DNA of 64,000 bases from an uncultured Verrucomicrobiae bacterium (GCA_963702845.1 OY969763.1:4736001-4800000); one strand, 5' to 3'. Shown: positions 10,158 to 22,413, numbered from the stretch's first letter. Made by a program: numbers and translations. The notes: generated by a model not told the origin, from the letters alone.

Positions 10158-10289
10158 CGTAGCGCAGGTTTCCAAACCTGCTGTATCGCCGACTTCCAAG
10201 TCGGCAGGCGTAACCGAACCCGTGCAGGTTTGGAAAGCCGAACGTCGGCCTCGCCGTGCGATACAGCAGACTTGGAAGTCTGCGCTACG
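10158..10289. repeat. GTAG-type REP-like inverted repeat pair
   Basis: CGTAGCGCAGGTTTCCAAACCTGCTGTATCGC ... GCGATACAGCAGACTTGGAAGTCTGCGCTACG; same family flanks argS. Confidence 0.85.
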
Positions 10290-10675
10290 AAAAAAAGCGG
10301 CAAAAAGTTACCGCGACTGGGTGTTACTGGGCGCGACTAGGCGTGACAAGTTGGAGTGCAGTCGCACCCCGGTCGCGGTAGCAGTCGCAGTCAGTCGCAC
10401 TCGCCTTTTTTGTGGCGGTCCATCGCCAGCTTGATTTGCTGGTGTGGAGGCTGAGTTACTATTTTCAGCACGATAACTACTATGGGGCGAACACCCCATA
10501 TCGCAGTTTGGATTTCTCCCTAGAGTTCTATGCGTAACCAAAAGCAATGACTCTGGACTGTCTAAACCGCCGCACGCCGCCGCCGCATCGCAATTGAGAC
10601 TGCAGTGCAATATTTCGGCGGCCGACGACGAAGCGAATGCAGTTCTGGAACAAAACAACAAATTGGAAAACCATT

Positions 10676-11500
10676 ATGCTGCATACTCAAAACATACTCA
10701 AAAAACATCTAAGGATAGTCTTTATCGTCGCCGGGGCGCTCTTTGCGCACCATAACGCGATTGCAATTCCGACTGTAGACCTTGGGTCCGCCTCTGGTTT
10801 TGCCGTCCTGGCTGGCTCTGCAATTACAATAGCTGGCCCTGTCAATTCGACCACCATAACTGGAGATATCGGTTCCTATCCAACCGCCTCCATCAGCGGC
10901 ACTGGAAACCTTGTCCTAAACGGGGTAAACCACGGAGGCGATGCGGTCACTCAGAACGCCAAAAACGATCTAACCGCTGCGTATGTCAATGCTGCCTCAC
11001 GGACGCCGACTACCACTTACGCTCCGATATTTGATCTCGGCGGATCAACACTATCATCCGGTATTTACTTCGACCCCTCGTCATTCGGGCTTACAGGGAT
11101 ATTGACGCTGGACGGCCACGGCGATGCTAATTCAGTGTTTATTTTCCAAACCGTTTCTGCTCTTACCACCGCTTCGAGCAGCCAGATCAATCTGATTAAT
11201 GGCGCGCAGTCCTGCCACGTTTTTTGGGCGATTGGCAGTTCGGCAACGCTCGGAACGGACTCTGCCTTTGTGGGAAATATCTTAGCTTTAACATCCATTA
11301 CCCTGGATACAGGTGCGACATTGGATGGCCGGGCGCTGGCGCAGAATGGTGCTGTCACCCTTGACAACAACGTTATTACAAAATCCGATTGTTTGGATAC
11401 TCCATCTACATCTGTGCCGGATACAGGAAGTACAGCGTTGCTGCTCGGTCTCGGAGTGGTGCCGCTGTTTGCTTTCAGGCGCTCGATACGTTCCGTGTGA
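10676..11500 (+). CDS. Ice-binding-like protein (DUF3494) with VPDxG-CTERM (PEP-CTERM-like) sorting signal
   Basis: VDLGSASGFAVLAGS.IT, AKNDLTAAY, GDANSVFIFQ, VFWAIGSSATLGT.S.FVGNILA and GRALAQNGAVTLDNN motifs; C-terminal VPDTGST-hydrophobic-RR. Confidence 0.9.
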   Translation: MLHTQNILKKHLRIVFIVAGALFAHHNAIAIPTVDLGSASGFAVLAGSAITIAGPVNSTTITGDIGSYPTASISGTGNLVLNGVNHGGDAVTQNAKNDLTAAYVNAASRTPTTTYAPIFDLGGSTLSSGIYFDPSSFGLTGILTLDGHGDANSVFIFQTVSALTTASSSQINLINGAQSCHVFWAIGSSATLGTDSAFVGNILALTSITLDTGATLDGRALAQNGAVTLDNNVITKSDCLDTPSTSVPDTGSTALLLGLGVVPLFAFRRSIRSV

Positions 11501-11515
11501 GTCCGTGCCGCCGTG

Positions 11516-12124
11516 CTAATCCGTGTGCGCCCTCCTCATCGAGGTGCGCACGCGGTACAGCCTCTCCGTAAATCCACCTTCTTTTTCAAAAGCACTCGCC
11601 TGCGCCTTCAGTTGTTTATCCAACAACCAGCAACACAGATTCAGCAAAGACAGGGCCCCATTCGCCGCCAACTCACACGAAGACACAGACACACACCGAC
11701 TCTCACGGACCTTCGCCGACGCAGACCGACGCCGCTCATCAGTGATCCACTCTCGAAACTGCTTCAACGTCGCACACCTTGTCGCCTTAAACCTTTTCAA
11801 GACTGGATCATCCACAGCCAGAATCTTAAATCCGCGTTGCCGCAAAAAATCTTCATAATCCAGCCGCAACTCTTCGAGACTTGCGCGCGCCACATTCGTG
11901 AGCCTCAGTTCCGTTTTCTTCGAAGTTCCCGAAGCTTGGCTACCCTCTGCAATATTCTGCACGCCGCTTCGCGCCGCCTGAACCATTTGGTCCCTCGTGC
12001 GACTTTTCAATTCCACATAACGTTCACAAAACCGCACCGTCACGTCATAAATGAGCTGCCCGAGTTGAAACGTTTTGAGCTTTCGATACCCGCCGTGTTC
12101 CGGAATCAATTCCTCACGATTCAT
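11516..12124 (-). CDS. Four-helix-bundle protein (23S rRNA-IVP/Avd-like family) with C-terminal suffix region
   Basis: HGGYRKLKTFQ, RTRDQMVQAARSGVQNIAEGS, LTNVARASLEELRLDYEDFLRQR and F.KEGGFTERLY motifs. Confidence 0.88.
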   Translation of the reverse strand: MNREELIPEHGGYRKLKTFQLGQLIYDVTVRFCERYVELKSRTRDQMVQAARSGVQNIAEGSQASGTSKKTELRLTNVARASLEELRLDYEDFLRQRGFKILAVDDPVLKRFKATRCATLKQFREWITDERRRSASAKVRESRCVSVSSCELAANGALSLLNLCCWLLDKQLKAQASAFEKEGGFTERLYRVRTSMRRAHTD

Positions 12125-12204
12125 CAACACCGATTAACAGCTATCCTGCGTCCTCCTGTCAACCACAGCATTTGAGCACAGCCGTCGTCCCTCTCTCATT
12201 TCGC

Positions 12205-12268
12205 GTTCGTCCATGGGTGTCCGTGCAGGTCTGTGTGAGTCCGTGTGAGTCCGTGAAAGTCCGTGTCC
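12205..12268. repeat. 10-bp-period tandem repeats (GTCCGTGTGA); also at ~11490-11530 and 12504-12549, and inverted at ~11675-11712
   Basis: gtccgtgcaggtctgtgtgagtccgtgtgagtccgtgaaagtccgtgtc. Confidence 0.8.
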
Positions 12269-12269
12269 C

Positions 12270-12360
12270 CATCGCATGCTCGGCCGTCGCAGCAACCCAG
12301 CCGCCCGCAACCTCGCCGTCATCGTCCGCACCATCGGCCACGATCTAAAACTAAAACCCC
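12270..12360 (+). pseudogene. 3' remnant of an HTH transcriptional regulator/addiction-module antidote
   Basis: Translates HRMLGRRSNPAARNLAVIVRTIGHDLKLK, resembling the HRML....NP...NL C-terminus of such regulators; the 5' part is replaced by the repeat array. Confidence 0.4.
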
Positions 12361-12652
12361 AAATCAAAACCTCCACCTCTCATTTACCCCGCGGTTTCAA
12401 CCCGGGGTAATGCGGCCAAACCCACAAACTACCCAACCGGTTCCAACGGTTTCCTCTGCCCTTTGTAATCTGCAATCTGTAATTTGTGATTTGCAGGCCT
12501 GTCGTCCGTGTGAGTCTGTGTTCGTCCGTGCAGGTCCGTGTGAGTCTGTTCTTCCCCGCCCCTGGCCCCCGATCGCTCCACCAAAAAAATCCTGAAAGGA
12601 TTAGAACCACTCAGCCCATGGTTGCGCGTTGCGCTACCCTGGGTAAAAACAT

Positions 12653-12692
12653 CCCAAACGAAGTTTCACGACAGCGCGACGACGGAGTTAAT
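12653..12692 (+). repeat. 40-bp direct repeat, copy 1
   Basis: CCCAAACGAAGTTTCACGACAGCGCGACGACGGAGTTAAT; 38/40 identical to 13817-13856. Confidence 0.9.
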
Positions 12693-12716
12693 GATTTTTT
12701 TCTCGGTCAATACGCC

Positions 12717-13633
12717 TCACTGGCGTGACGAAGTCGCATTGTGTCCGTCCTCTAGTTCATTGCCAGTAGTGAACTCGTCAAACCGTCCATTGCGATACAC
12801 GAAAAGCTTCCGGGTCAGACGATAAGACCCGCCAGTTGAAGCTTGTTTCACCATCAGCTTCATCTTCTCAATGCCCTGCGGATCCTGGCTTCCGGTCACC
12901 AACAATAAGTCACGAGTCGGAATGGCAACGACCCTGTCTCCTTTCACATCCATTTCAATGTTGGTCCAAACCGAATCGAGCACCAGCAGGCTGGCTTCGT
13001 AGTCTCCTCCCGCAGTAATTATGTAAAGACCGTTTGTCCCGTGGCGTTTAATCTCGGGAAGAAGGCGTTCAAGATTCGCGCAGGCAAGCGCTCTCAGATC
13101 GACCTCTCGATCTTCGCCAACTCCAAATCGCTCAATTCCAGATAACGAATGCTCTTCGGCGAATCCTGCACATAAAAAACCACGAGATCCGGGTTCAAGT
13201 CTTCGTAGACCCATTCTGGGGGCTTCTTTGCGCCGCGGCTGACAAATACCTGTCGAGTTTCCTCCAACCAGGCACGGTCTTTAATAACTGGCACAATCCG
13301 CGTGCGGTCCATTCCACCTCGGTTCGGATCGAAGCTCTCTAAGCCTGCCACGACGAATCGCTGTATCACGTCTGCCTTTGATTTGGGATCCTGCTTGTAC
13401 AGGTCATAAGCGTTGTTCAGGAACGACGTTGAGCCGTGCCCATCAGCAGACGTGACTCTGACTTCCAAGTCCCTTACGATGGCCAGCTTAAGTCCCGGGT
13501 TCGCTTTTCTGAGTGCATCGGCAAATTCGAGAGTGAACTGGTTTGGCATGATAATATCAGAGTGCGAGCAACCGGAAGATAATCCGAGCGCGGCAAGCAG
13601 GACCTGCACGATGCGTTTGATATATTTGCCCAA
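12717..13633 (-). pseudogene. DUF1444-like lipoprotein, frameshifted near 13100
   Basis: ORFs 13094..13750 and 12717..13214 join (..LAKIERS/DLRALACANL..GGDYEASLL..VVAIPTRDLLLVTG); lipobox-like LSSGC. One missing G restores the frame. Confidence 0.65.
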
Positions 13634-13816
13634 AATCTTTACCGAGAACTTTATGTTTCGTACCTCTGGTGTTGTTGTAAAAGCTATTTGGTCGGTTGTG
13701 CCCAAGCAACCGCAGAATATGCGCGAGTCCTTGCAAACACTCTGCCGCAACCATATTCCAAAATCCCGAAGGGATGACTGAAACTAGCCCGGCGTTTTAA
13801 CGCCGGCTACAAGTAA

Positions 13817-13856
13817 CCCAAACGAAGTTTCACGAAAGCGCGACGAAGGAGTTAAT
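13817..13856 (+). repeat. 40-bp direct repeat, copy 2
   Basis: CCCAAACGAAGTTTCACGAAAGCGCGACGAAGGAGTTAAT. Confidence 0.9.
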
Positions 13857-13934
13857 AAATTCTGGTCGTGTGAGAGCGTGCTGGTCCGCATTCCCAAATT
13901 GCGCATTACAACCAACACGATGTAGCCTTTCCCC

Positions 13935-14885
13935 ATGAAGCTACCGGTAGAGGGGACGCCATTGCTACCACCAGATATCGCCGCTCCTGAAAAACAACTG
14001 CTCACATATCGCTCGCACCCGCGTCTATTCGCGATTCCGCCAACCGCAACGGCAGCAGAAGGAGAATTCGAGGGGCTCTATTTATGCGAGCGTCACGTTC
14101 ATCGCCACGGCGCAAACCTTCCACCCTACATCGGCGATTACACAATTTCCATCGAAGGCGGCGTTGAAAGCTCCGGTCAACTACTCGAGGTGGGATCCAA
14201 GCTCGGAGCGATGACCGCTGATTTAGACCGATTCTTTGTCTACGCATGCGGAGAACCGCTGCTTCCAGTTGGTTTCTCGTTTTCGTTCGATTCAACACCG
14301 AACGGATGGCAGTCGAATCGCGACGATCTCAAAGATTACTTCTTGCAGCATTGCACGAAAACAATCGCAGTCGTTCGTGTTACAAACCAGAAATGGATCT
14401 CAATGCCATATTTTCCGTTGCGTCCTGCCCTAGAAGCGAGAGACAGATTTAAATCGGCGGATACAATAACGGCGGCATTGGTCGACCTTCACTACGGTGC
14501 GCTCAAAGTGCCGATCGGCGAAGGAAGACTGTTTTCTTTGGCTCGAGGACTCGAACTTGCGCGAAAGGTAATCCCTGGCAACGATGACGACGCAAAAGAA
14601 AAGAACCTTGCGTTGCCGGTGGGCGCTCTTAAGCGATCTCTGCACTGGCTGTTTGATGTAGGCAATAACCGGTACAATACGCGGCACGTGGTGAAGCGAG
14701 GTGCCCCAGCTGCCGTTCTGCACCCGCGCATGACAGGCGAAGAGTTGACTGACTACCAATCGGACGCCGATTACGTCCTTCGTAAGCTGATATGCGACAG
14801 GCTTAAGATATTGTGTCCGAATCTACAGCCGGCTGGTCCAAGTATGGAAACGCAGCAATCCCAACACACCGAAGGTGCGTCGTAA
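13935..14885 (+). CDS. Hypothetical protein with possible C-terminal HEPN domain
   Basis: 316-aa ORF; helical C-terminus with LFDVGNNRYNTRH (R-x4-H). Confidence 0.55.
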   Translation: MKLPVEGTPLLPPDIAAPEKQLLTYRSHPRLFAIPPTATAAEGEFEGLYLCERHVHRHGANLPPYIGDYTISIEGGVESSGQLLEVGSKLGAMTADLDRFFVYACGEPLLPVGFSFSFDSTPNGWQSNRDDLKDYFLQHCTKTIAVVRVTNQKWISMPYFPLRPALEARDRFKSADTITAALVDLHYGALKVPIGEGRLFSLARGLELARKVIPGNDDDAKEKNLALPVGALKRSLHWLFDVGNNRYNTRHVVKRGAPAAVLHPRMTGEELTDYQSDADYVLRKLICDRLKILCPNLQPAGPSMETQQSQHTEGAS

Positions 14886-15242
14886 TATTTCCATCGACAA
14901 TCCTATTAATGCCCGTTTGAGCTACCAATTTTCTGCGCTTCGGCCGGAATGATATAAACGGTCGTGAGAAGGTTCTCCACTACCTCGAACGCTGCGTATA
15001 ACCCATCCTCGGTATTCGCTTTGATTTCGTGGGCTGCTCCATTTCCTAGAACCCGTATTTGCTGCAAAATGTCGCGCCTTCGGCGGTGATGACACCTCGC
15101 TGTGTTAAGTCATTAATCCGTTGCTTGAGATCGTTGCAGGTTGGTGGCGCCATTAACTGGGCCGCGTCGGCCCGATGACTTCAGCGCCCTCACTTCGAAA
15201 TCACAAAATATTTGGCGTCAGTCCTTGATGAGCCGTAAACAC

Positions 15243-15983
15243 CTACCAATACAAATTAGTCCGACTAGGTGCCGGATAATCCGACGGATTATCCCCAAGC
15301 ACCGGTGGGAAAGCAAAATACGCAACATGCCCGTCGCCAAAGAGCATGTTGAAACGACGCTGGCCTTTGTCGTTGTGCCACCACGTGCTTGAGTCGGTGC
15401 CAACGTCGTTCGATGGGAGCTCCCAATCCCAATCACCTTGGATAATTTTATTGCCCGGACTAGTCGCAATTTCACTCGCTTTGATGGGCACGGCCCCATC
15501 GGCATAAGACGGGTCTGAGTCCGCAGTGACATGTTGAACCATCCAGTCGTCCACGTCGTGTTGCGGGCAGTAACTATTTCCATAAGACACGAAACAGTTA
15601 TCCACCTGGTACCTGGCTTCGCCCCTGTCCGAGGGACAGCGCCAGGCCGTCGCAGCGGGTACATATCGATTCAAAACCCGGTTGGCATAGTCGTTGGTAG
15701 TGCCGAAAGCAGCGGCGACACCCGAATCAAGAGTATCGGCGCCCCGTTGGCCTCCAGCCGAAGCCCAACCGCGAATGCGGGGGTACCAATCACTATTATC
15801 GCTGACGTACATCTGCCAGCCCAAGCCGATCTGATGCTGGTTGCTGGTGCACTGCGCCAGTTGGGCCTTCTTTTTGGCCCGGCTCAGCACTGGCAGCAGC
15901 AACGCGGCCAGGATCGCGATAATGGCGATGACCACCAGCAACTCTATCAGCGTGAATGCCCGCCTCATTTTCATGTCGTCCAC
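15243..15983 (-). CDS. Prepilin-type N-terminal cleavage/methylation protein with H-X9-DG C-terminal motif (DUF1559-like)
   Basis: [42 protein letters not shown]. Confidence 0.9.
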
Positions 15984-15986
15984 TCG

Positions 15987-16409
15987 TTATATGTGCGCCG
16001 ATTGGGCGCAAACGCCGTGCATTCGCCTCTTCAACTCTTCAGCAACCCCCCGCGCATCCTTCGGCGTGATAAAAATCGTTTCGCAAGCAATCCGTCCCCT
16101 GATCGTAATCGCCAACCACTCACCCACCAACCGACTTTTATAAGAATAAACAGCAGGTCCGTAACGCAATAATGGCAGCAGTAAAACCACCTTGTACCAC
16201 GGCCACACCTCCACCGATGTCACGTCATCATAGCTGACCTTCCGCTTTCCCATTGCCAATGGGTTAGGAATTTCAAATCCATCGACCAAAAACTGAATAC
16301 CATCATAAACCAACTTTTCCGCTCCAGAGCCCTGGGCGACTTTTCTGAAACCCTTCAACACGAGGACTCCGACAATTCCGAAAAATAAAAGGACCAGAAA
16401 AATTTCCAT
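15987..16409 (-). CDS. Hypothetical membrane-anchored protein
   Basis: N-terminal TM helix, GAGGAG RBS, co-oriented with the downstream prepilin-type gene. Confidence 0.6.
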   Translation of the reverse strand: MEIFLVLLFFGIVGVLVLKGFRKVAQGSGAEKLVYDGIQFLVDGFEIPNPLAMGKRKVSYDDVTSVEVWPWYKVVLLLPLLRYGPAVYSYKSRLVGEWLAITIRGRIACETIFITPKDARGVAEELKRRMHGVCAQSAHI

Positions 16410-17109
16410 GGCGTCTCCTCACTCAGTGCATCCGACGAATCTCGTGTGGATCGTTGGCCTTCATTTGCCGATGTTGCCTCTCCGAAGAACGCCACGCAAG
16501 TCCTCGCAAATCACTTTCCTAGTAAAAGCTTATTTCCGCTAAGAAGGTTGCCCCACCAAAACCCATAAACTCCTTCGATGATTGAGCCAGTAAAATCGGC
16601 AGCAATCCCTTCCCATCTGCGAAATCCCGTGATTCCTCTCTTTGTGCTCTCTGCGATCTTTGCGGTTAAATATTCTTCAACTTGCCGCAGCCGCGCGTTG
16701 GACGTTGGCCATTCGCCTCTCAAGTTTTGAGTTTTAAGTTTCCTCTCTGCGCCTTTGCTTCTTTGCGCCTTCGCGTTGAAAACCTCCTTCAACTTCCATG
16801 CCAACCACCTAAAAACGCACGATTTCGTCATAAAAAAGTGCTGTTTCTTTCCCTGATTTCCCTCCTTTCCCTACATTTTTTGACCAGTCGCTACTTCCTG
16901 CCATAATTCACCTACGCGGGTCGCTGGGACCGAATGGCCCCACGCGCAAGCGTGCCGCTGAGCAATAACGCTCGTCGGCCTGTCCTCCATAGCTTCACGC
17001 GAAGGAGGAAACATTAAAATGTACACTTATGCACAACGCTCGCACTTGTCATCACACCTTGGCGTCCTTCGCGCCCTTCGCGAGACAAGAAGGGAACCGG
17101 AACTTCCGG

Positions 17110-17159
17110 CCGAACCATTCCGAACCAAACCGAAGTAATCCGAACCATTCCGAAGATAA
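17110..17159 (+). repeat. Five 10-bp tandem units (CCGAA-N5) directly upstream of the terminase small subunit
   Basis: CCGAACCATT CCGAACCAAA CCGAAGTAAT CCGAACCATT CCGAAGATAA. Confidence 0.8.
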
Positions 17160-17164
17160 AAATT

Positions 17165-17881
17165 ATGAACACTGAAACCAGCACCCACCGCCGTAAAGGC
17201 CACATCGCCCGATTGCCGAAGGCCCTTCGCGACAAGGTCAACTCCATGCTCGATGATGGCGCGACCTACGGCGCGATCATCGAGGAACTAAACAAATCCA
17301 CCAACCCTCCCCTGCCCCATCCCGTCACCGAAGACAACGTGGGCACATGGAAAGAAGGCGGCTACCAGGATTATTTGCGCAACCAACAATACCTCGACGA
17401 AATTCGTCTGCGCCAATATCCATCCGAAGACTTCGCCCAGAACTTCGACGCCACATCCGTCGGCAACGCCACCATTCAACTCGGCATGCTCCACGTCTTC
17501 GAATCATTGCGCGCCCTCGGCTCAGGCAAACTCGACCTCAGCAACGATCCCATGGCCTTTGCCCGCGTCATGAACTCCGTCGCGCGCGCCAGCCGCGAAC
17601 TCATGCTCCTGCAAAAATATCAGGATGCCAACGCCCTCGCGCGGCTGAAACTCCAACCCCTTCTCGATCCAGAGCGCGAACTCACCGACAGCGAAACCAA
17701 AGCCATCGTCAGCCAGGTCGACAAAATCCTCGGCTTATCCGGCCCCTTACCTGACCTCGTTTCAATTGGTAGGGACGATCGCGCGGTTCGCGGAGCGAAC
17801 AACAAAACAATTTGTTCTAATGTCACGTCGTCCGTTCCGCCGTCGTCCGCTCTCAACACTCAACCATCAACCAACAACTAA
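17165..17881 (+). CDS. Mu gp27-like (DUF3486) protein, putative terminase small subunit
   Basis: N-terminal RKGHIARLPKALRDKVNSML..G.TY..II..L HTH-like motif; 2 bp upstream of terL. Confidence 0.65.
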   Translation: MNTETSTHRRKGHIARLPKALRDKVNSMLDDGATYGAIIEELNKSTNPPLPHPVTEDNVGTWKEGGYQDYLRNQQYLDEIRLRQYPSEDFAQNFDATSVGNATIQLGMLHVFESLRALGSGKLDLSNDPMAFARVMNSVARASRELMLLQKYQDANALARLKLQPLLDPERELTDSETKAIVSQVDKILGLSGPLPDLVSIGRDDRAVRGANNKTICSNVTSSVPPSSALNTQPSTNN

Positions 17882-17883
17882 TT

Positions 17884-19668
17884 ATGACCATCGACAACGA
17901 AAACCATATCAACCGCCACTTCATGCCGCATCAAATCCTCTGGATTCGCGGCGAAGAACCGATCCACGCCATCGGCAAACAAGCCGTCGCCCTCGCCGAA
18001 AAATCCGTCCGCATCGGCTGGACCTACGCCGACGGCTTTAAAAACGTGCGCAAACGGATCCTCCACAAAAACCGCGATTACCTTTTCGCCACCAAAGATT
18101 ATGCCAGCGCGCTCGAGTACATCAAACAATGCTACCAATTCGCCGAAATCTTCAACGTCACCCGCAGCATCAAATCACACGGCGAAGAAATCCTCAGCGT
18201 GAACCGTCTCGACGACAAAGGTCGTCCATCTGCCTTCACCGAAGACGTCAAAGTCGGCGTGATCAAATTCGACAACGGCTCGCGCATCATCGCCTTCAGC
18301 GCCAACCCACAAGCCATGGCCGTCTACGGCGGCGACGTCGGCCTCGACGAATTCGCCAAACATCCCAATGCCCGTCTCCTCTGGGAGACCGCCCAGGGCC
18401 GCGTCACCTGGGGTTATGATTTGGCCGTGTGGTCGAGTCACGATGGCGAAGACACATTGTTCAACGAATTCGCACAGGAAGCACGGGTGAGTGTAAGAAA
18501 ACCGATTGACGTAATTGAACGCGACAGCGTCTTGGACTGCGGCAGTCCTCTGCCGCTTTTGGGGTTCGACGGAGTCGCGGGTTCAAATCCGAAAGCGCCA
18601 GAGGGGCCGAACGTCGGCCTCGCGGAGCGCAGTCCAAAAGCTTCGCCAGTCCGAACGCCCGAGACGACTCCGAACATCCCTTGGAACCTTTATTACAAGG
18701 TCACCATCCAGGACGGCATCAACAACGGCCTCGTCGAAGTCATCAACAAATCGCGCGGGACTAAGTTTACCGCGGACCAATTCCTGGCCGATTGCAAAGC
18801 ACGCGCGCGGGATGAGGAAGTTTTCCAACAAGCGTATATGTGCAATCCGCTCGGTGCGGCCACCAATCACATCGTGGAATGGAGCGCGATCGAACGTTGC
18901 CGTCACGATTACAAGATCGAGCGTGTCCATCTCGAAGCGGACGAAGTCCAACAACAATTCGGTGCGTTCAATCCGTCGAGTGCGCGCGAACGGGAAAACA
19001 ACATCGAAGCGTTCCTATGCAAAAAGTTTCCATCGCTGGATTTCAATCCCATCCACAGCACGCCCACGTTCCGGCTCGGCTTCGACGTCGCCGCCAGTGG
19101 CACGGGTGATCTGGCCGTCATTTACATCGACGAGAAAAAGGGGGACGAACATTGGCTTCGTGCCTTGTTCACCTGTCGCACCGAAGACTGGCACTTTCTC
19201 AAGACGGTCCTGTTCTATTTCATGAACACGACCGGTTCGCTCAAAGGCGCCGGCGACGAAACCGGTCTGGGCCGCCAGATCTGTTGGGAAGCGGCGCAGA
19301 AATTCGGGTCGCGCTGGAAATCGGTGAACTTCGCCAGCAAGAAGCACGACCTTGGTTTCAACCTGATGAACCAGTTGAGCGTCGCGCAAAAGCGTTTCCC
19401 GAGCAGCGAACACGACATCGCAGGCGACTACTATGCGCTCAAGAAAATGTTCAACGGCAACAAATGGAATTTCGCCGAAGGCAAAAACGCGCTCAACCCG
19501 GCGAGCCATTGCGACATCGCCTGGGCCGGCGCATTGGCCAGCGAAGCGCCCAAGAGCGGCGGCGGCATCGGCATTTCCGTGCTGATGGAGGGCGGCACGT
19601 GGTCGACGTATCACACTGACGATCCGATTCCCAAGCCGACGCCGTATCCGGGTAAGGCGGTTTGGTAG
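17884..19668 (+). CDS. Mu-like (gp28) terminase large subunit
   Basis: Walker A EKSVRIGWT, Walker B DVGLDEFA, coupling motif SSH, F.Q.YMCNP, and RNase H-like nuclease motifs GFDVA, DETGLG, HCDIAWAGALA. Confidence 0.85.
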   Translation: MTIDNENHINRHFMPHQILWIRGEEPIHAIGKQAVALAEKSVRIGWTYADGFKNVRKRILHKNRDYLFATKDYASALEYIKQCYQFAEIFNVTRSIKSHGEEILSVNRLDDKGRPSAFTEDVKVGVIKFDNGSRIIAFSANPQAMAVYGGDVGLDEFAKHPNARLLWETAQGRVTWGYDLAVWSSHDGEDTLFNEFAQEARVSVRKPIDVIERDSVLDCGSPLPLLGFDGVAGSNPKAPEGPNVGLAERSPKASPVRTPETTPNIPWNLYYKVTIQDGINNGLVEVINKSRGTKFTADQFLADCKARARDEEVFQQAYMCNPLGAATNHIVEWSAIERCRHDYKIERVHLEADEVQQQFGAFNPSSARERENNIEAFLCKKFPSLDFNPIHSTPTFRLGFDVAASGTGDLAVIYIDEKKGDEHWLRALFTCRTEDWHFLKTVLFYFMNTTGSLKGAGDETGLGRQICWEAAQKFGSRWKSVNFASKKHDLGFNLMNQLSVAQKRFPSSEHDIAGDYYALKKMFNGNKWNFAEGKNALNPASHCDIAWAGALASEAPKSGGGIGISVLMEGGTWSTYHTDDPIPKPTPYPGKAVW

Positions 19669-19800
19669 GGCGAGGCTCCCGCCGAGCTGGGTTCGCGCAA
19701 CGTGCGGAAAGGCTCAGCAGGAGCTTCGCCCTACCGAGTTTTCGAAAGAACGGCCGCGCGCGGAGCCGGAAGGTCCGGTTCGCAAACGCGCCCTACCAAC
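19664..19800. repeat. GTAG-type REP-like palindrome
   Basis: GGTAGGGCGAGGCTCCCGCCGAGC ... GCTCAGCAGGAGCTTCGCCCTACC, plus a further CGCGCCCTACC end. Confidence 0.75.
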
Positions 19801-19834
19801 GCGGAAATTCGTACGCGCGTGAACATGGTTACGT

Positions 19835-19884
19835 CTGCCGATTTGGAAATCGGCGATACGGCAGGCTCGGAGGCCTGCGATACG
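19835..19884 (+). repeat. REP-like double hairpin downstream of argS
   Basis: CTGCCGATTTGGAAATCGGCGATACGGCAGGCTCGGAGGCCTGCGATACG; direct copy at 21660-21709. Confidence 0.85.
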
Positions 19885-19887
19885 CAG

Positions 19888-21618
19888 CTACATCGTCTCG
19901 GTGACTTCGATGCCGAGGACTTCCAAGCCTTGCTTGAGGACTTTGGCGGTCACTTCGCACAAGGCGAGGCGAGCGGCGCGTTGGGGACCTTCGGCTTTGA
20001 GCACGGGGCAATTCTCGTAGAAGCGCGCGAAGTGGCCGGACAAATCGTAGAGATATGTGCAGAGAAAATTCGGGCGGTAATCCTCGGCGACGGCTTCGAG
20101 GACCAGGCCGAAGTTCAACAGGTGTTTGGCCAAAGTGAGTTCTTCGGGAGCGCCGAGCGGGATTTCGCCGCCGCCACCGGCGTTATCGAGATCGCCTTTG
20201 CGGAAAATACTGCGGACGCGGGTGTAGGAGTATTGCAGATACGGCGCGGTGTTGCCCTGGAGCGACAGCATCTTGTCCCAACTGAAGACGTAATCGCTCT
20301 GGCGATTTTGGGAGAGGTCGGCGTATTTGATGGAGCCGAGGCCGACGACCCGCGCGATTTCGAGGCGCGCTTCTTTGGTCATGTCGGCGTTTTTTTCGCT
20401 GACGACTTTGAAGGCGCGTTCTTCGGCTTCGTCGAGCAGGTCCTCGAGTTTGACGGTGTCGCCCGAGCGGGTTTTGAACGGTTTGCCGTCTTCACCGAGG
20501 ATCGAGCCGAACCAGACGTGGGCCAGTTTGACGCCGGTTTCCGAATGCCATTTGCGGAAAGCGGTGAAGATCTGGCGAAAGTGCAATTGCTGGCGACCGT
20601 CGGTGACGTAAATGATTTCGTCCGGCTTCGCGCCCCACGTGCCGCCTTCCATGCGGAATTGCAAGGTGGCGAGGTCGGTCGTGGTGTAATTGAAACCGGC
20701 GTCGCTCTTTTGCACGAGCGCGGGATGTTCTTTCAAATCGGGAACATCATCAAACGGGACGATGAGCGCGCCTTCGCTCTCGCGGGCGAGACCGCTTTTT
20801 TTCAGGTCTTCGATGACGTTTTTGAGGCGTGGATTGTAATAGCTCTCGCCGTAGGTGTAATCGAATTTGACGCCGAGCCGGTTATAGACGCGTTCGAATT
20901 GCGTTTCGGAGAGCGCGATCATATCGCGCCAAATTTGCAGGTTCTCCTCGTCGCCGCTCTGGAGCTTGACGAGTTCCTGGCGCGCTTCGTCGAGCACGGC
21001 CGGATTTTGTTCGCAGGCGGCGTTGACCAATTTATAGAGGCGCTCCATTTCGCCGATGGGGTCCTTTTCGAGCGCGGCTTTGTCGAGGTGCTGTTTCCAG
21101 CCGACGAGCAATTTGCCGAACTGCGTGCCCCAATCGCCGATGTGGTTGTCGGTCACGACGCGATGGCCGAGCAGACGCAGGACGCGCGCGAGGGAATCGC
21201 CAAGAATGGTCGAGCGAATGTGACCGACGTGCATCGGCTTGGCGACATTGGGCGAACTGAAATCGATCACGACCGTGCGCGGCTTGGTCGTCTTTTGGAA
21301 AAACAGGTGTTCGCCGCGAAGCGCGCCAACGAGTGTTTTGCCGATGGCGGATGGTTTGAGGGTGAAATTGAGAAAGCCGGCGCCGGCGATCTCGACTTTG
21401 TCGCACCACTCGGAGACGTCGAGCTTGGCTTTGACGTCGGTGGCCAACTGGCGCGGGTTCATCTTGCGCTCTTTGGCGAGCGACATGAGAGCGTTGCTTT
21501 GGTAATCGCCGAACTTGGAGTCCGTTGCAGGGCGCACGAGAACGCGGGAGACATCCGCGTCCGGGAGAATGGCGCGAACGGCTTCCTGCAATTTTTGTTC
21601 GAGAAAGATGTGTAGCAC
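19888..21618 (-). CDS. argS: Arginine--tRNA ligase
   Basis: FGDYQSN, DFSSPNVAKPMHVGHIRS (HIGH-like), NHIGDWGTQFG, FKTRSG, GNTAPYLQY motifs. Confidence 0.98.
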   Translation of the reverse strand: MLHIFLEQKLQEAVRAILPDADVSRVLVRPATDSKFGDYQSNALMSLAKERKMNPRQLATDVKAKLDVSEWCDKVEIAGAGFLNFTLKPSAIGKTLVGALRGEHLFFQKTTKPRTVVIDFSSPNVAKPMHVGHIRSTILGDSLARVLRLLGHRVVTDNHIGDWGTQFGKLLVGWKQHLDKAALEKDPIGEMERLYKLVNAACEQNPAVLDEARQELVKLQSGDEENLQIWRDMIALSETQFERVYNRLGVKFDYTYGESYYNPRLKNVIEDLKKSGLARESEGALIVPFDDVPDLKEHPALVQKSDAGFNYTTTDLATLQFRMEGGTWGAKPDEIIYVTDGRQQLHFRQIFTAFRKWHSETGVKLAHVWFGSILGEDGKPFKTRSGDTVKLEDLLDEAEERAFKVVSEKNADMTKEARLEIARVVGLGSIKYADLSQNRQSDYVFSWDKMLSLQGNTAPYLQYSYTRVRSIFRKGDLDNAGGGGEIPLGAPEELTLAKHLLNFGLVLEAVAEDYRPNFLCTYLYDLSGHFARFYENCPVLKAEGPQRAARLALCEVTAKVLKQGLEVLGIEVTETM

Positions 21619-21659
21619 AGCTATCGGTTAAATCTGGCGCTGCTTTGTGTCTCTGACAC

Positions 21660-21709
21660 CTGCCGATTTGGAAATCGGCGACACAGCAGGTTTGGAAACC
21701 TGCGATACG
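21660..21709 (+). repeat. REP-like double hairpin upstream of argS
   Basis: CTGCCGATTTGGAAATCGGCGACACAGCAGGTTTGGAAACCTGCGATACG. Confidence 0.85.
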
Positions 21710-21720
21710 GCGCGACTCCT

Positions 21721-22188
21721 TTATTTCGGCGTAGAGAATTTTTTGATCACCTCGAACATGGCGGCGGCGTCCGGGGCTTGTTCCAGTTCCAGGCGAAAAT
21801 CTTTCATGTGCAGCAATTTTGCGATGCTGGCCAAGGTATGAAGATGTTTCTGGAACTGGCCTTGCGGGACGAGGAACAACATGACGAGGTTGACCGGCTG
21901 ATTGTCGAGCGCGTCGAAATTGACGCCGGTCTTGGAACGGCCGAGCGCGCCGACGACTTCGGTGATGAGATCGGTCGAGGCGTGCGGGATGCCAATGCCA
22001 AAGCCGATCCCGGTGCTCATGGAGGTTTCGCGCTTCTTCACGACAGCGGCGATGGCCTCCCGATTTTCGGGCCGGATCTTTTTGGTGGCGACCAGATTTT
22101 CGATCAGTTCATCGATTGCATCCCAACGATTGGCAGCTTTGAGCTGGGGGAGCAAATTTTCCGGACCTAAAATATCGCCTAAATTCAT
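21721..22188 (-). CDS. PTS IIA component (fructose/nitrogen-regulatory, PtsN-like)
   Basis: RETSMSTGIGFGIGIPHA with the phospho-His, and F.ALDNQPV; start set at ATG 22188. Confidence 0.9.
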   Translation of the reverse strand: MNLGDILGPENLLPQLKAANRWDAIDELIENLVATKKIRPENREAIAAVVKKRETSMSTGIGFGIGIPHASTDLITEVVGALGRSKTGVNFDALDNQPVNLVMLFLVPQGQFQKHLHTLASIAKLLHMKDFRLELEQAPDAAAMFEVIKKFSTPK

Positions 22189-22413
22189 ACGAAACGCTTG
22201 TTCATTTCGCCTGAAGCGCAACCGCAATTCAAGAGGAATGTTCGCCGAACGTCGGCCTCGCACGAGGAAGAGACCAAGAAGAAACGCAAAACGAAGAATT
22301 AAGATGCGCTCGTCCGCAAAAAAAACTATTCTGTAGTATTGCGTAAGCGCCGCATTTCGTTAAAAAATAGCAAAATTTTATATTCGACCACAACGGGTCG
22401 GTGACTGTCAGAG

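Follow-up and report, generated by a model that had tools for sequence, protein, structure and literature searches.

The question raised by a 64-kb stretch of DNA from an uncultured Verrucomicrobiae bacterium (GCA_963702845.1 OY969763.1:4736001-4800000; the whole stretch is called the window below) is what the 18-nucleotide (nt) sequence GCCGAACGTCGGCCTCGC is, and how it came to stand exactly three times on the + strand, at 10237-10254, 18606-18623 and 22244-22261. A preliminary description of the window had reported these three same-strand copies and their 5-bp hairpin, and both were confirmed; shuffled versions of the window do not reproduce them, with a mean of 0.23 matches at three or fewer mismatches and none of the 100 shuffles reaching three. 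The comparisons given below show a non-coding unit that was placed many separate times with no target duplication, and we hold with high confidence that this 18-mer is a real mobile unit similar to the small dispersed repeats (SDRs) of Nostocaceae.

A count over both strands of the genome holding the window (G000; a single contig of 6.03 Mb, 89.8% complete), which the preliminary description had proposed, gave 22 exact copies, 8 forward and 14 reverse, and 31 copies within one mismatch, with none for the reversed sequence used as a control. When five variants of the 18-mer were searched with up to two mismatches, again with the reversed sequence as control, the family in G000 amounted to 73 copies; some few of those with two mismatches in coding DNA are probably due to chance. 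The consensus consists of a 5-bp stem (NNNGA / TCN'N'N'), a 3-nt ACG loop and an NTCGC tail; the hairpin folds, and the tail TCGC (GCGA on the other strand) is present in about 90% of the copies. With a pattern that did not force pairing, the stem was perfect in 41 of the 42 matches from G000 and in all 13 from its congener G002. The perfect-stem matches use four stem sequences, eight perfect ones being possible among 64, and these stem counts refer to copies, not to independent events. The stem has plainly been kept through sequence change. Flanks are diverse on both sides of the copies and the ends of the unit are sharp. No stop codon is present in any frame of the four variants checked.

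The copy at 10237-10254 (+), of the main variant, lies at an AA|C bond in the right arm of a GTAG-type repetitive extragenic palindromic (REP) hairpin, within a host REP doublet (GTAG...CTAC) spanning 10159-10288. The same hairpin occurs as an empty allele at 21686-21703 (+), which the preliminary description had correctly recognized but had started one base too late, at 21687. It had also read the copies as pure insertions into hairpins; hairpins are indeed interrupted, but the insertion is not pure, as CCTG has become CGTG behind the 10237 copy (10255-10258, +; empty sites have CCTG in 23/29 cases and CCGG in 4/29) and CTGG has become GGAG behind the 18606 copy. The latter (18606-18623, +, main variant) occupies a GG|C bond where loop and stem meet in a second REP family and is followed by a GGA scar (18624-18626, +), against CTG in every one of the 15 aligned empty sites. 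Both copies are nested in other repeats as described. The 18606 copy was rightly placed in frame inside the terminase large subunit gene terL (17884-19668, +), which we treat as context and not as a demonstrated mover, and it encodes PNVGLA; its host REP doublet (18532-18637), however, is itself an in-frame insertion within the terL linker.

The third copy (22244-22261, +, main variant) lies, as reported, in the intergenic region between the PTS IIA gene and gltB, provided that PTS IIA starts at the ATG at 22188 (gene identities from Pfam). G002 lacks it at the orthologous position, in a segment that has diverged, and the sequence on its 3' side is apparently similar to the right arm in a fourth family of hairpins, which would make its scar a C-to-A change. 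A fourth family member, overlooked in the preliminary description, is located at 19766-19783 (+). This CCGGA-stem variant with one loop change sits at AG|C in a third REP family (GTAG-type host REP at 19752-19797), and in its scar (19784-19785, +) AA stands for CG.

Across G000 the 18-mer was found to enter repeats, the flank being repeated in the genome for 30 of 53 copies against 9 of 60 random positions outside open reading frames (ORFs). Its hosts are unrelated, comprising several REP-type hairpins, tandem repeats of 7-11 bases, copies of the 18-mer itself and a plain coding site. The host families number at least six, all unrelated, with coding DNA in addition. Filled and empty alleles were both recovered when repeat families and relatives were compared. 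The idea of a mobile unit targeting hairpins is therefore borne out as to mobility and to landing in hairpin repeats, by the copies on both strands, by these alleles, by the different sites in the congener and by self-nesting, but palindromes are not the sole targets. No position was shared in five orthologous comparisons with G002, made in diverged intergenic DNA and with one junction clear. Within each host family entry takes place at one bond, with a fixed orientation relative to the host repeat; the bond is at the loop/stem boundary in two families and within the stem near the loop in two. Insertion is mostly at purine-purine|C (RR|C): of the 53 copies, 46 have a purine at position -1, and C is the first base of the empty sites of four repeat families in 15/15, 28/29, 28/30 and 11/11 cases. 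Neither a target duplication, at the aligned filled sites, nor a conserved target tetranucleotide was found. The 53 copies have no replication strand bias (leading/lagging 24:29), and bias in transcription direction is also absent (12:12).

The same hosts bear on the possibility that a few old insertions were followed by passive spread through amplification or conversion of the host repeats, an account to which we give little credence. Long flanks are shared in the repeat family at G000 184599, 742728, 3772622 and 4212258, three scars are an identical CAA, and composites occur in G061 and G065, two of the records introduced below. Moreover, slippage is possible in a head-to-tail array of five copies (L228:7398-7487; G000 4439397-4439486), in which copy 2 bears the A-rich scar and copies 3 to 5 are exact. 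Such spread does not agree with the number of unrelated host families, with coding DNA as a host, with differing scars at one bond, or with the same 18-mer in other host repeats of other genomes. It lowers the event count and explains some copies, but it cannot replace insertion.

Beyond G000, 7 exact copies and 6 variants are present in G002, which belongs to the same genus. No exact 18-mer was found in 28 family members of other genera, each of which has at most three matches to the loose pattern, one of these being a perfect-stem match. Only G000 has several copies in order-wide (251 genomes) and class-wide (401 genomes) draws, which did not contain G002 or G061-G065. The latter are five Verrucomicrobia-labelled records taken further from an all-species genome scan, in which such records were among the matches listed, and follow-up yielded 42 matches in G061, 12 in G062, 7 in G065, 5 in G064 and 3 in G063; the assemblies of G002, G062, G064 and G065 are fragmented or small. 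Most exact matches in non-Verrucomicrobia genomes are chance-like, in GC-rich coding DNA, and were discarded by eye. In metagenomes, 131 distinct sites carrying the 18-mer were found at 117 loci; they are not all independent, as some repeat sites known from other records. In other genomes the identical 18-mer sits in different host repeats. Viral contigs gave 4, 10 and 5 single matches, mostly coding-like, annotated phages gave short chance-like matches only, and the 18-mer has no match in Rfam.

This distribution also bears on an artefact of sequencing or assembly, such as the adapter or barcode that the preliminary description had considered, or a base-calling error at hairpins. The copies do cluster at hairpins. 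Such an origin is nevertheless very unlikely indeed, because the sites differ among six other assemblies and many metagenome contigs, the stems vary in compensatory pairs and the copies decay, including diverged in-frame copies inside a gene.

The clearest mark of insertion is a one-sided scar. When 12 filled sites were aligned with 173 empty sites from the repeat families of G000, non-consensus bases made up 18/36 at +1 to +3 and 1/36 at -1 to -3, against a baseline of 57/519 at +1 to +3 in the empty sites; a single event may underlie three of the 12, whose scar is identical, and one had been paired with the wrong repeat family, so that the printed p-values of this test are overstated. Thus the 5' junction is clean, and the first 1-3 target bases 3' of the element are replaced, mostly by A (13 of the 19 right-side changes in the aligned filled sites). 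A stricter automated run with 9 sites, in which the control was noisy, gave 14 changes at +1 to +3 and 2 at -1 to -3. Position +1 is A in 39/53 copies of G000 and in 27/30 of G061, 9/11 of G062, 5/5 of G064, 6/6 of G065 and 7/14 of G002, which makes 54/66 over these five genomes, many of the copies having flanks in common. Where copies stand in tandem, A is the first base of the older, downstream one in 7/7 cases in G062 and once in the G000 array. At one bond of one family the scars differ (GGA, ATT, ATG), as they do at that of another (CGTG, CATA). Since all 12 aligned filled sites carry a change, the scar probably arises at insertion. A sister 18-mer on metagenome contigs holds the unit in its loop in 17 further cases, two bases having been replaced; as the scan fixed A and then A/T after the element, these were kept out of the A-bias counts.

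Because the 5' junction is clean and at a fixed bond and the 3' junction is sloppy, these data suggest nick-primed synthesis; a clean primed junction followed by a sloppy second one is typical of target-primed synthesis. We tentatively favour, at somewhat below even chances, copying of a short template from a nick, with a sloppy second junction and an enzyme supplied in trans. The target strand would be nicked immediately 5' of the C, and the free 3'-OH would prime copying of a short complementary template ending in the hairpin, giving the clean 5' junction. The second junction would then be closed imprecisely, with 1-3 target bases replaced, mostly by A, and a net gain usually of 18.

Several observations weigh against this reading, beyond the reduced number of independent scars and the noisy control just mentioned. 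Family C hairpins are entered at the other loop edge and do not follow RR|C, and tandem-repeat sites in G061 depart from it too, filled and empty status being ambiguous there. The net gain is 18 at 9 of 15 resolvable sites and 14-23 at the others. No conserved single source or template locus was seen. As to polymerases, the reverse transcriptase domain RVT_1 has no match in G000, G002, G062, G064 or G065, where very divergent or past enzymes may escape detection, and the LigD polymerase, rejected as a candidate, is present in 19/36 genomes and missing in four of G061-G065, so that it does not track the element. Finally, a generic rule of A addition fails for 18-nt units as a group, because a second family, described below, has C or G at +1.

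A somewhat unlikely alternative, yet one to be taken seriously, is strand transfer on single-stranded DNA by an HUH enzyme of the RAYT/TnpA-REP kind, which the preliminary description had favoured. The other strand of the 18-mer would be a mini-REP (a GCGA foot, one base and a 5-bp stem-loop) whose 3' end joins a phosphotyrosine-linked target precisely, while a 5' cut upstream of the foot carries along 1-3 donor bases. In the accessible part of PMC8266576, group 3 REPs of Marinomonas have a similar anatomy, with perfect 5-bp stems 2 bases from the tetranucleotide. G000 has seven Y1 matches, of three types, many targets are REPs, one target family borders a Y1 gene, and the element-specific +1 bases of the two 18-nt families suit donor carry-over. 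However, the element borders none of the seven Y1 loci of G000, the nearest copy being 1.2 kb away, and Y1 is present in 36/36 genomes with or without the element, multi-copy elements being found in few; on these counts Y1/RAYT was put aside as the mover, and the proposal of the preliminary description was not supported, though it stays the main rival. The foot is neither GTAG nor CGTC, and the word GCGA does not appear in the portion of PMC3733652 available to us. On the other strand the target is mostly G|Y, as opposed to the C|T and C|A cuts described in the accessible texts, and the guide rule set out in the available part of PMC8266576 would, as we applied it, predict other dinucleotides. 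Moreover, joining alone removes no target bases, and a scarred 3' junction is unlike precise strand transfer.

The REP repeat that hosts the 10237 copy also borders a Y1 gene elsewhere in G000, and at G000:C1 3663650-3663994 a short Y1 match (model positions 37-121) is followed by that same REP family; this is possibly a split RAYT gene.

A third route, in which a small hairpin RNA is reverse-transcribed at a nick by a reverse transcriptase acting in trans now or formerly (from an intron, phage or plasmid), seems to us quite unlikely. A polar junction and added A match the behaviour of reverse transcriptases, a route through RNA was reportedly once proposed for SDRs, and G061, with 42 copies, has eight RVT_1 matches. 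The lack of RVT_1 matches in the other five genomes searched, the balanced transcription directions and the lack of a visible source locus speak against it.

Other candidates fared no better. A DUF559 nicking endonuclease is encoded in 25/36 genomes and is absent in G000. Four IS110 genes are present in G000, none of them bordered by the element, and around the 7 Y1 and 4 IS110 genes the best match to the 18-mer has 4-6 mismatches and the longest exact piece is 7-10 nt. The terL family of the window was not found with the query used in G061-G065; as this test covered that family and not a second, copy-carrying one, some role for terminases is still conceivable. An integron-type G|TT crossover is improbable, as the joined element ends would contain no GTT. 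No shared or enriched enzyme family was detected among the genes beside copies in G000, at the 117 metagenome loci or at the loci of other genomes.

These neighbourhoods bear equally on the suggestion, also made in the preliminary description, that a larger transposon left the 18-mer behind as a footprint or end when it excised, which we regard as highly improbable. Its ends are exact, and with a tetranucleotide at the terminus behind a hairpin it is reminiscent of the right ends of IS200/IS605 insertion sequences (ISs). Yet no larger element with the 18-mer at its end came to light, and in G000 it neither forms the end of an IS nor flanks a RAYT, IS200 or IS110 gene, no copy bordering a transposase there. 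No enzyme family is enriched beside the metagenome loci or those of other genomes, and excision would hardly yield nested and tandem copies.

Returning to nick-primed copying, a second, unrelated family of 18-nt hairpin-plus-tail units in G000, GYGTT[A/T]GCACRCGGCCAC, provides a comparison for the scar. It has 30 copies with paired stem variants, clustered at G000:C1 127851-143701, 1720147-1738353, 4282519-4297671 and 4825000-4839163, and is found in G002 and G022 too. Its copies have one orientation per island and a purine left flank; position +1 is C or G in 26/30, and 1-6 target bases are lost at resolvable sites. The scar is therefore unit-specific, a finding that fits bases read through from a template or donor better than simple addition of untemplated A. 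The sister 18-mer, with an ACC loop and a TGGC tail, occurs in metagenome loci such as L240, L246, L256 and L293, where the main unit enters its loop; its pattern is not multi-copy in the order, with 1-3 matches in 20/151 genomes, near the control level. It is conceivable, although unlikely, that one undescribed system writes several unrelated 18-nt hairpin-plus-tail units (the main, the TGGC-tailed sister and GGCCAC-tailed families) into nicked DNA through short oligonucleotide templates, in a manner resembling prime editing and involving neither a reverse transcriptase nor a classical transposase. If true, such a route would also explain SDRs across phyla.

Insertion into genes can be followed in terminases. 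One terminase family has a single site with in-frame insertions, carrying no copy in four G000 loci, one copy in two other records and two diverged copies in a further G000 locus, with gains of +15 and +33. Proteins thus gain 5-6 residues in frame from the 18-mer, in this family step by step, and its survival in genes can be attributed to a length divisible by three and the lack of stop codons. Host repeats are found in frame as well. Two paralogous terL genes with 86% identity, at window 18490-18670 and L227:4314-5798, differ in the REP doublet that stands in frame at one shared position of the linker, and a terL homologue in G021 has no doublet in its linker. Near the eight terL loci of lone terS-terL pairs in G000, 7 of 69 element sites lie within 1 kb, against 0.3 expected; two target REP families, however, are close to a similar degree (2/14 and 2/29), and five other families have none.

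Other features of these regions are recorded here. Window 17165-19668 and seven other G000 loci make up eight terS-terL-like pairs, most of them among housekeeping genes and repeat-rich, two of which are followed by a further conserved ORF. The Rfam Acido-Lenti-1 motif was matched above threshold at window 13762-13807 (-) and L228:3154-3200 (-), inside a dispersed REP-like repeat, and one repeat of this type, at G000 4433726, appears to have a family member inside. Imperfect 10-base tandem repeat arrays lie at window 12197-12264 and 12492-12559. The hairpin that holds the 18-mer at G000:C1 3497603-3497659 has a left arm that has come to mirror the tail of the element, which suggests fold-back correction after insertion.

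Among known systems, the closest kind appears to be the SDRs of Nostocaceae, likened here by description, the sequences of SDR1-SDR8 not having been compared. SDR families of 21-27 nt, with conserved structure and nested in tandem repeats and in themselves, were reportedly described by Elhai et al. in 2008, who are also said to have noted raised mutation near SDR insertions. Structure kept through change and nesting in repeats and in itself are both seen in the 18-mer. We know of no enzyme for SDRs. According to the accessible parts of the literature, SDR5 is a 21-nt unit that inserts precisely between the 3rd and 4th base of the highly iterated palindrome HIP1 (PMC5861425, PMC4390886, PMC13756078, PMC2884548, PMC3116915), and it was not found outside Nostocaceae among HIP1-rich cyanobacteria (PMC5861425, as far as available); the available part of a 2026 paper calls its function unknown. 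Both SDRs and the 18-mer are dispersed units of about 20 nt with a precise insertion position, filled and empty alleles and no target duplication. Unlike SDR5, the 18-mer is shorter (18 vs 21 nt), enters mostly RR|C in many hosts instead of HIP1, leaves a one-sided, A-biased scar of 1-3 bases, and occurs in Verrucomicrobia-labelled hosts rather than in Nostocaceae or other cyanobacteria.

Resemblance to other small repeats is partial. With group 3 REP/REPIN sequences and their RAYTs (REPtron Mb and Sm; PMC8266576, PMC3733652, in their accessible portions) the 18-mer shares a tetranucleotide beside a perfect stem-loop and a dispersed, mostly extragenic distribution, sometimes in frame in genes. 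It differs from REPs as described there in having a GCGA foot instead of GTAG or CGTC, no flanking tnpA-REP gene in G000 and no inverted doublets; it uses REPs as insertion sites, and its insertion is marked by a scar. IS200/IS605 ends (PMC8266576, in part) have in common with it a hairpin with a terminal tetranucleotide, the lack of target duplication and a strand-specific anatomy, whereas the 18-mer consists of one hairpin instead of two ends, lacks both a conserved target tetranucleotide and an adjacent tnpA, and has an imprecise 3' junction. Miniature inverted-repeat transposable elements are set apart by their terminal inverted repeats and target-site duplications, in place of which the 18-mer has an asymmetric hairpin and tail.

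In the literature searched, where subscription papers are thinly covered, neither the 18-mer nor an SDR enzyme is described, and the accessible part of a review of small repeats has no passage on SDRs. As far as this literature goes, the movement of units of about 20 bases is still unexplained. Since SDRs are already known, the 18-mer is less striking as a class, but it offers a handle on such units in its short target rule, its clean 5' junction, its A-biased 3' scar of 1-3 bases and a second family with a different scar. A candidate enzyme would have to yield the signature formed by these features, and the question is therefore testable in vitro. Compared with the SDRs, the 18-mer is of a known but mechanistically unsolved kind, to which it contributes a one-sided scar and a second family.

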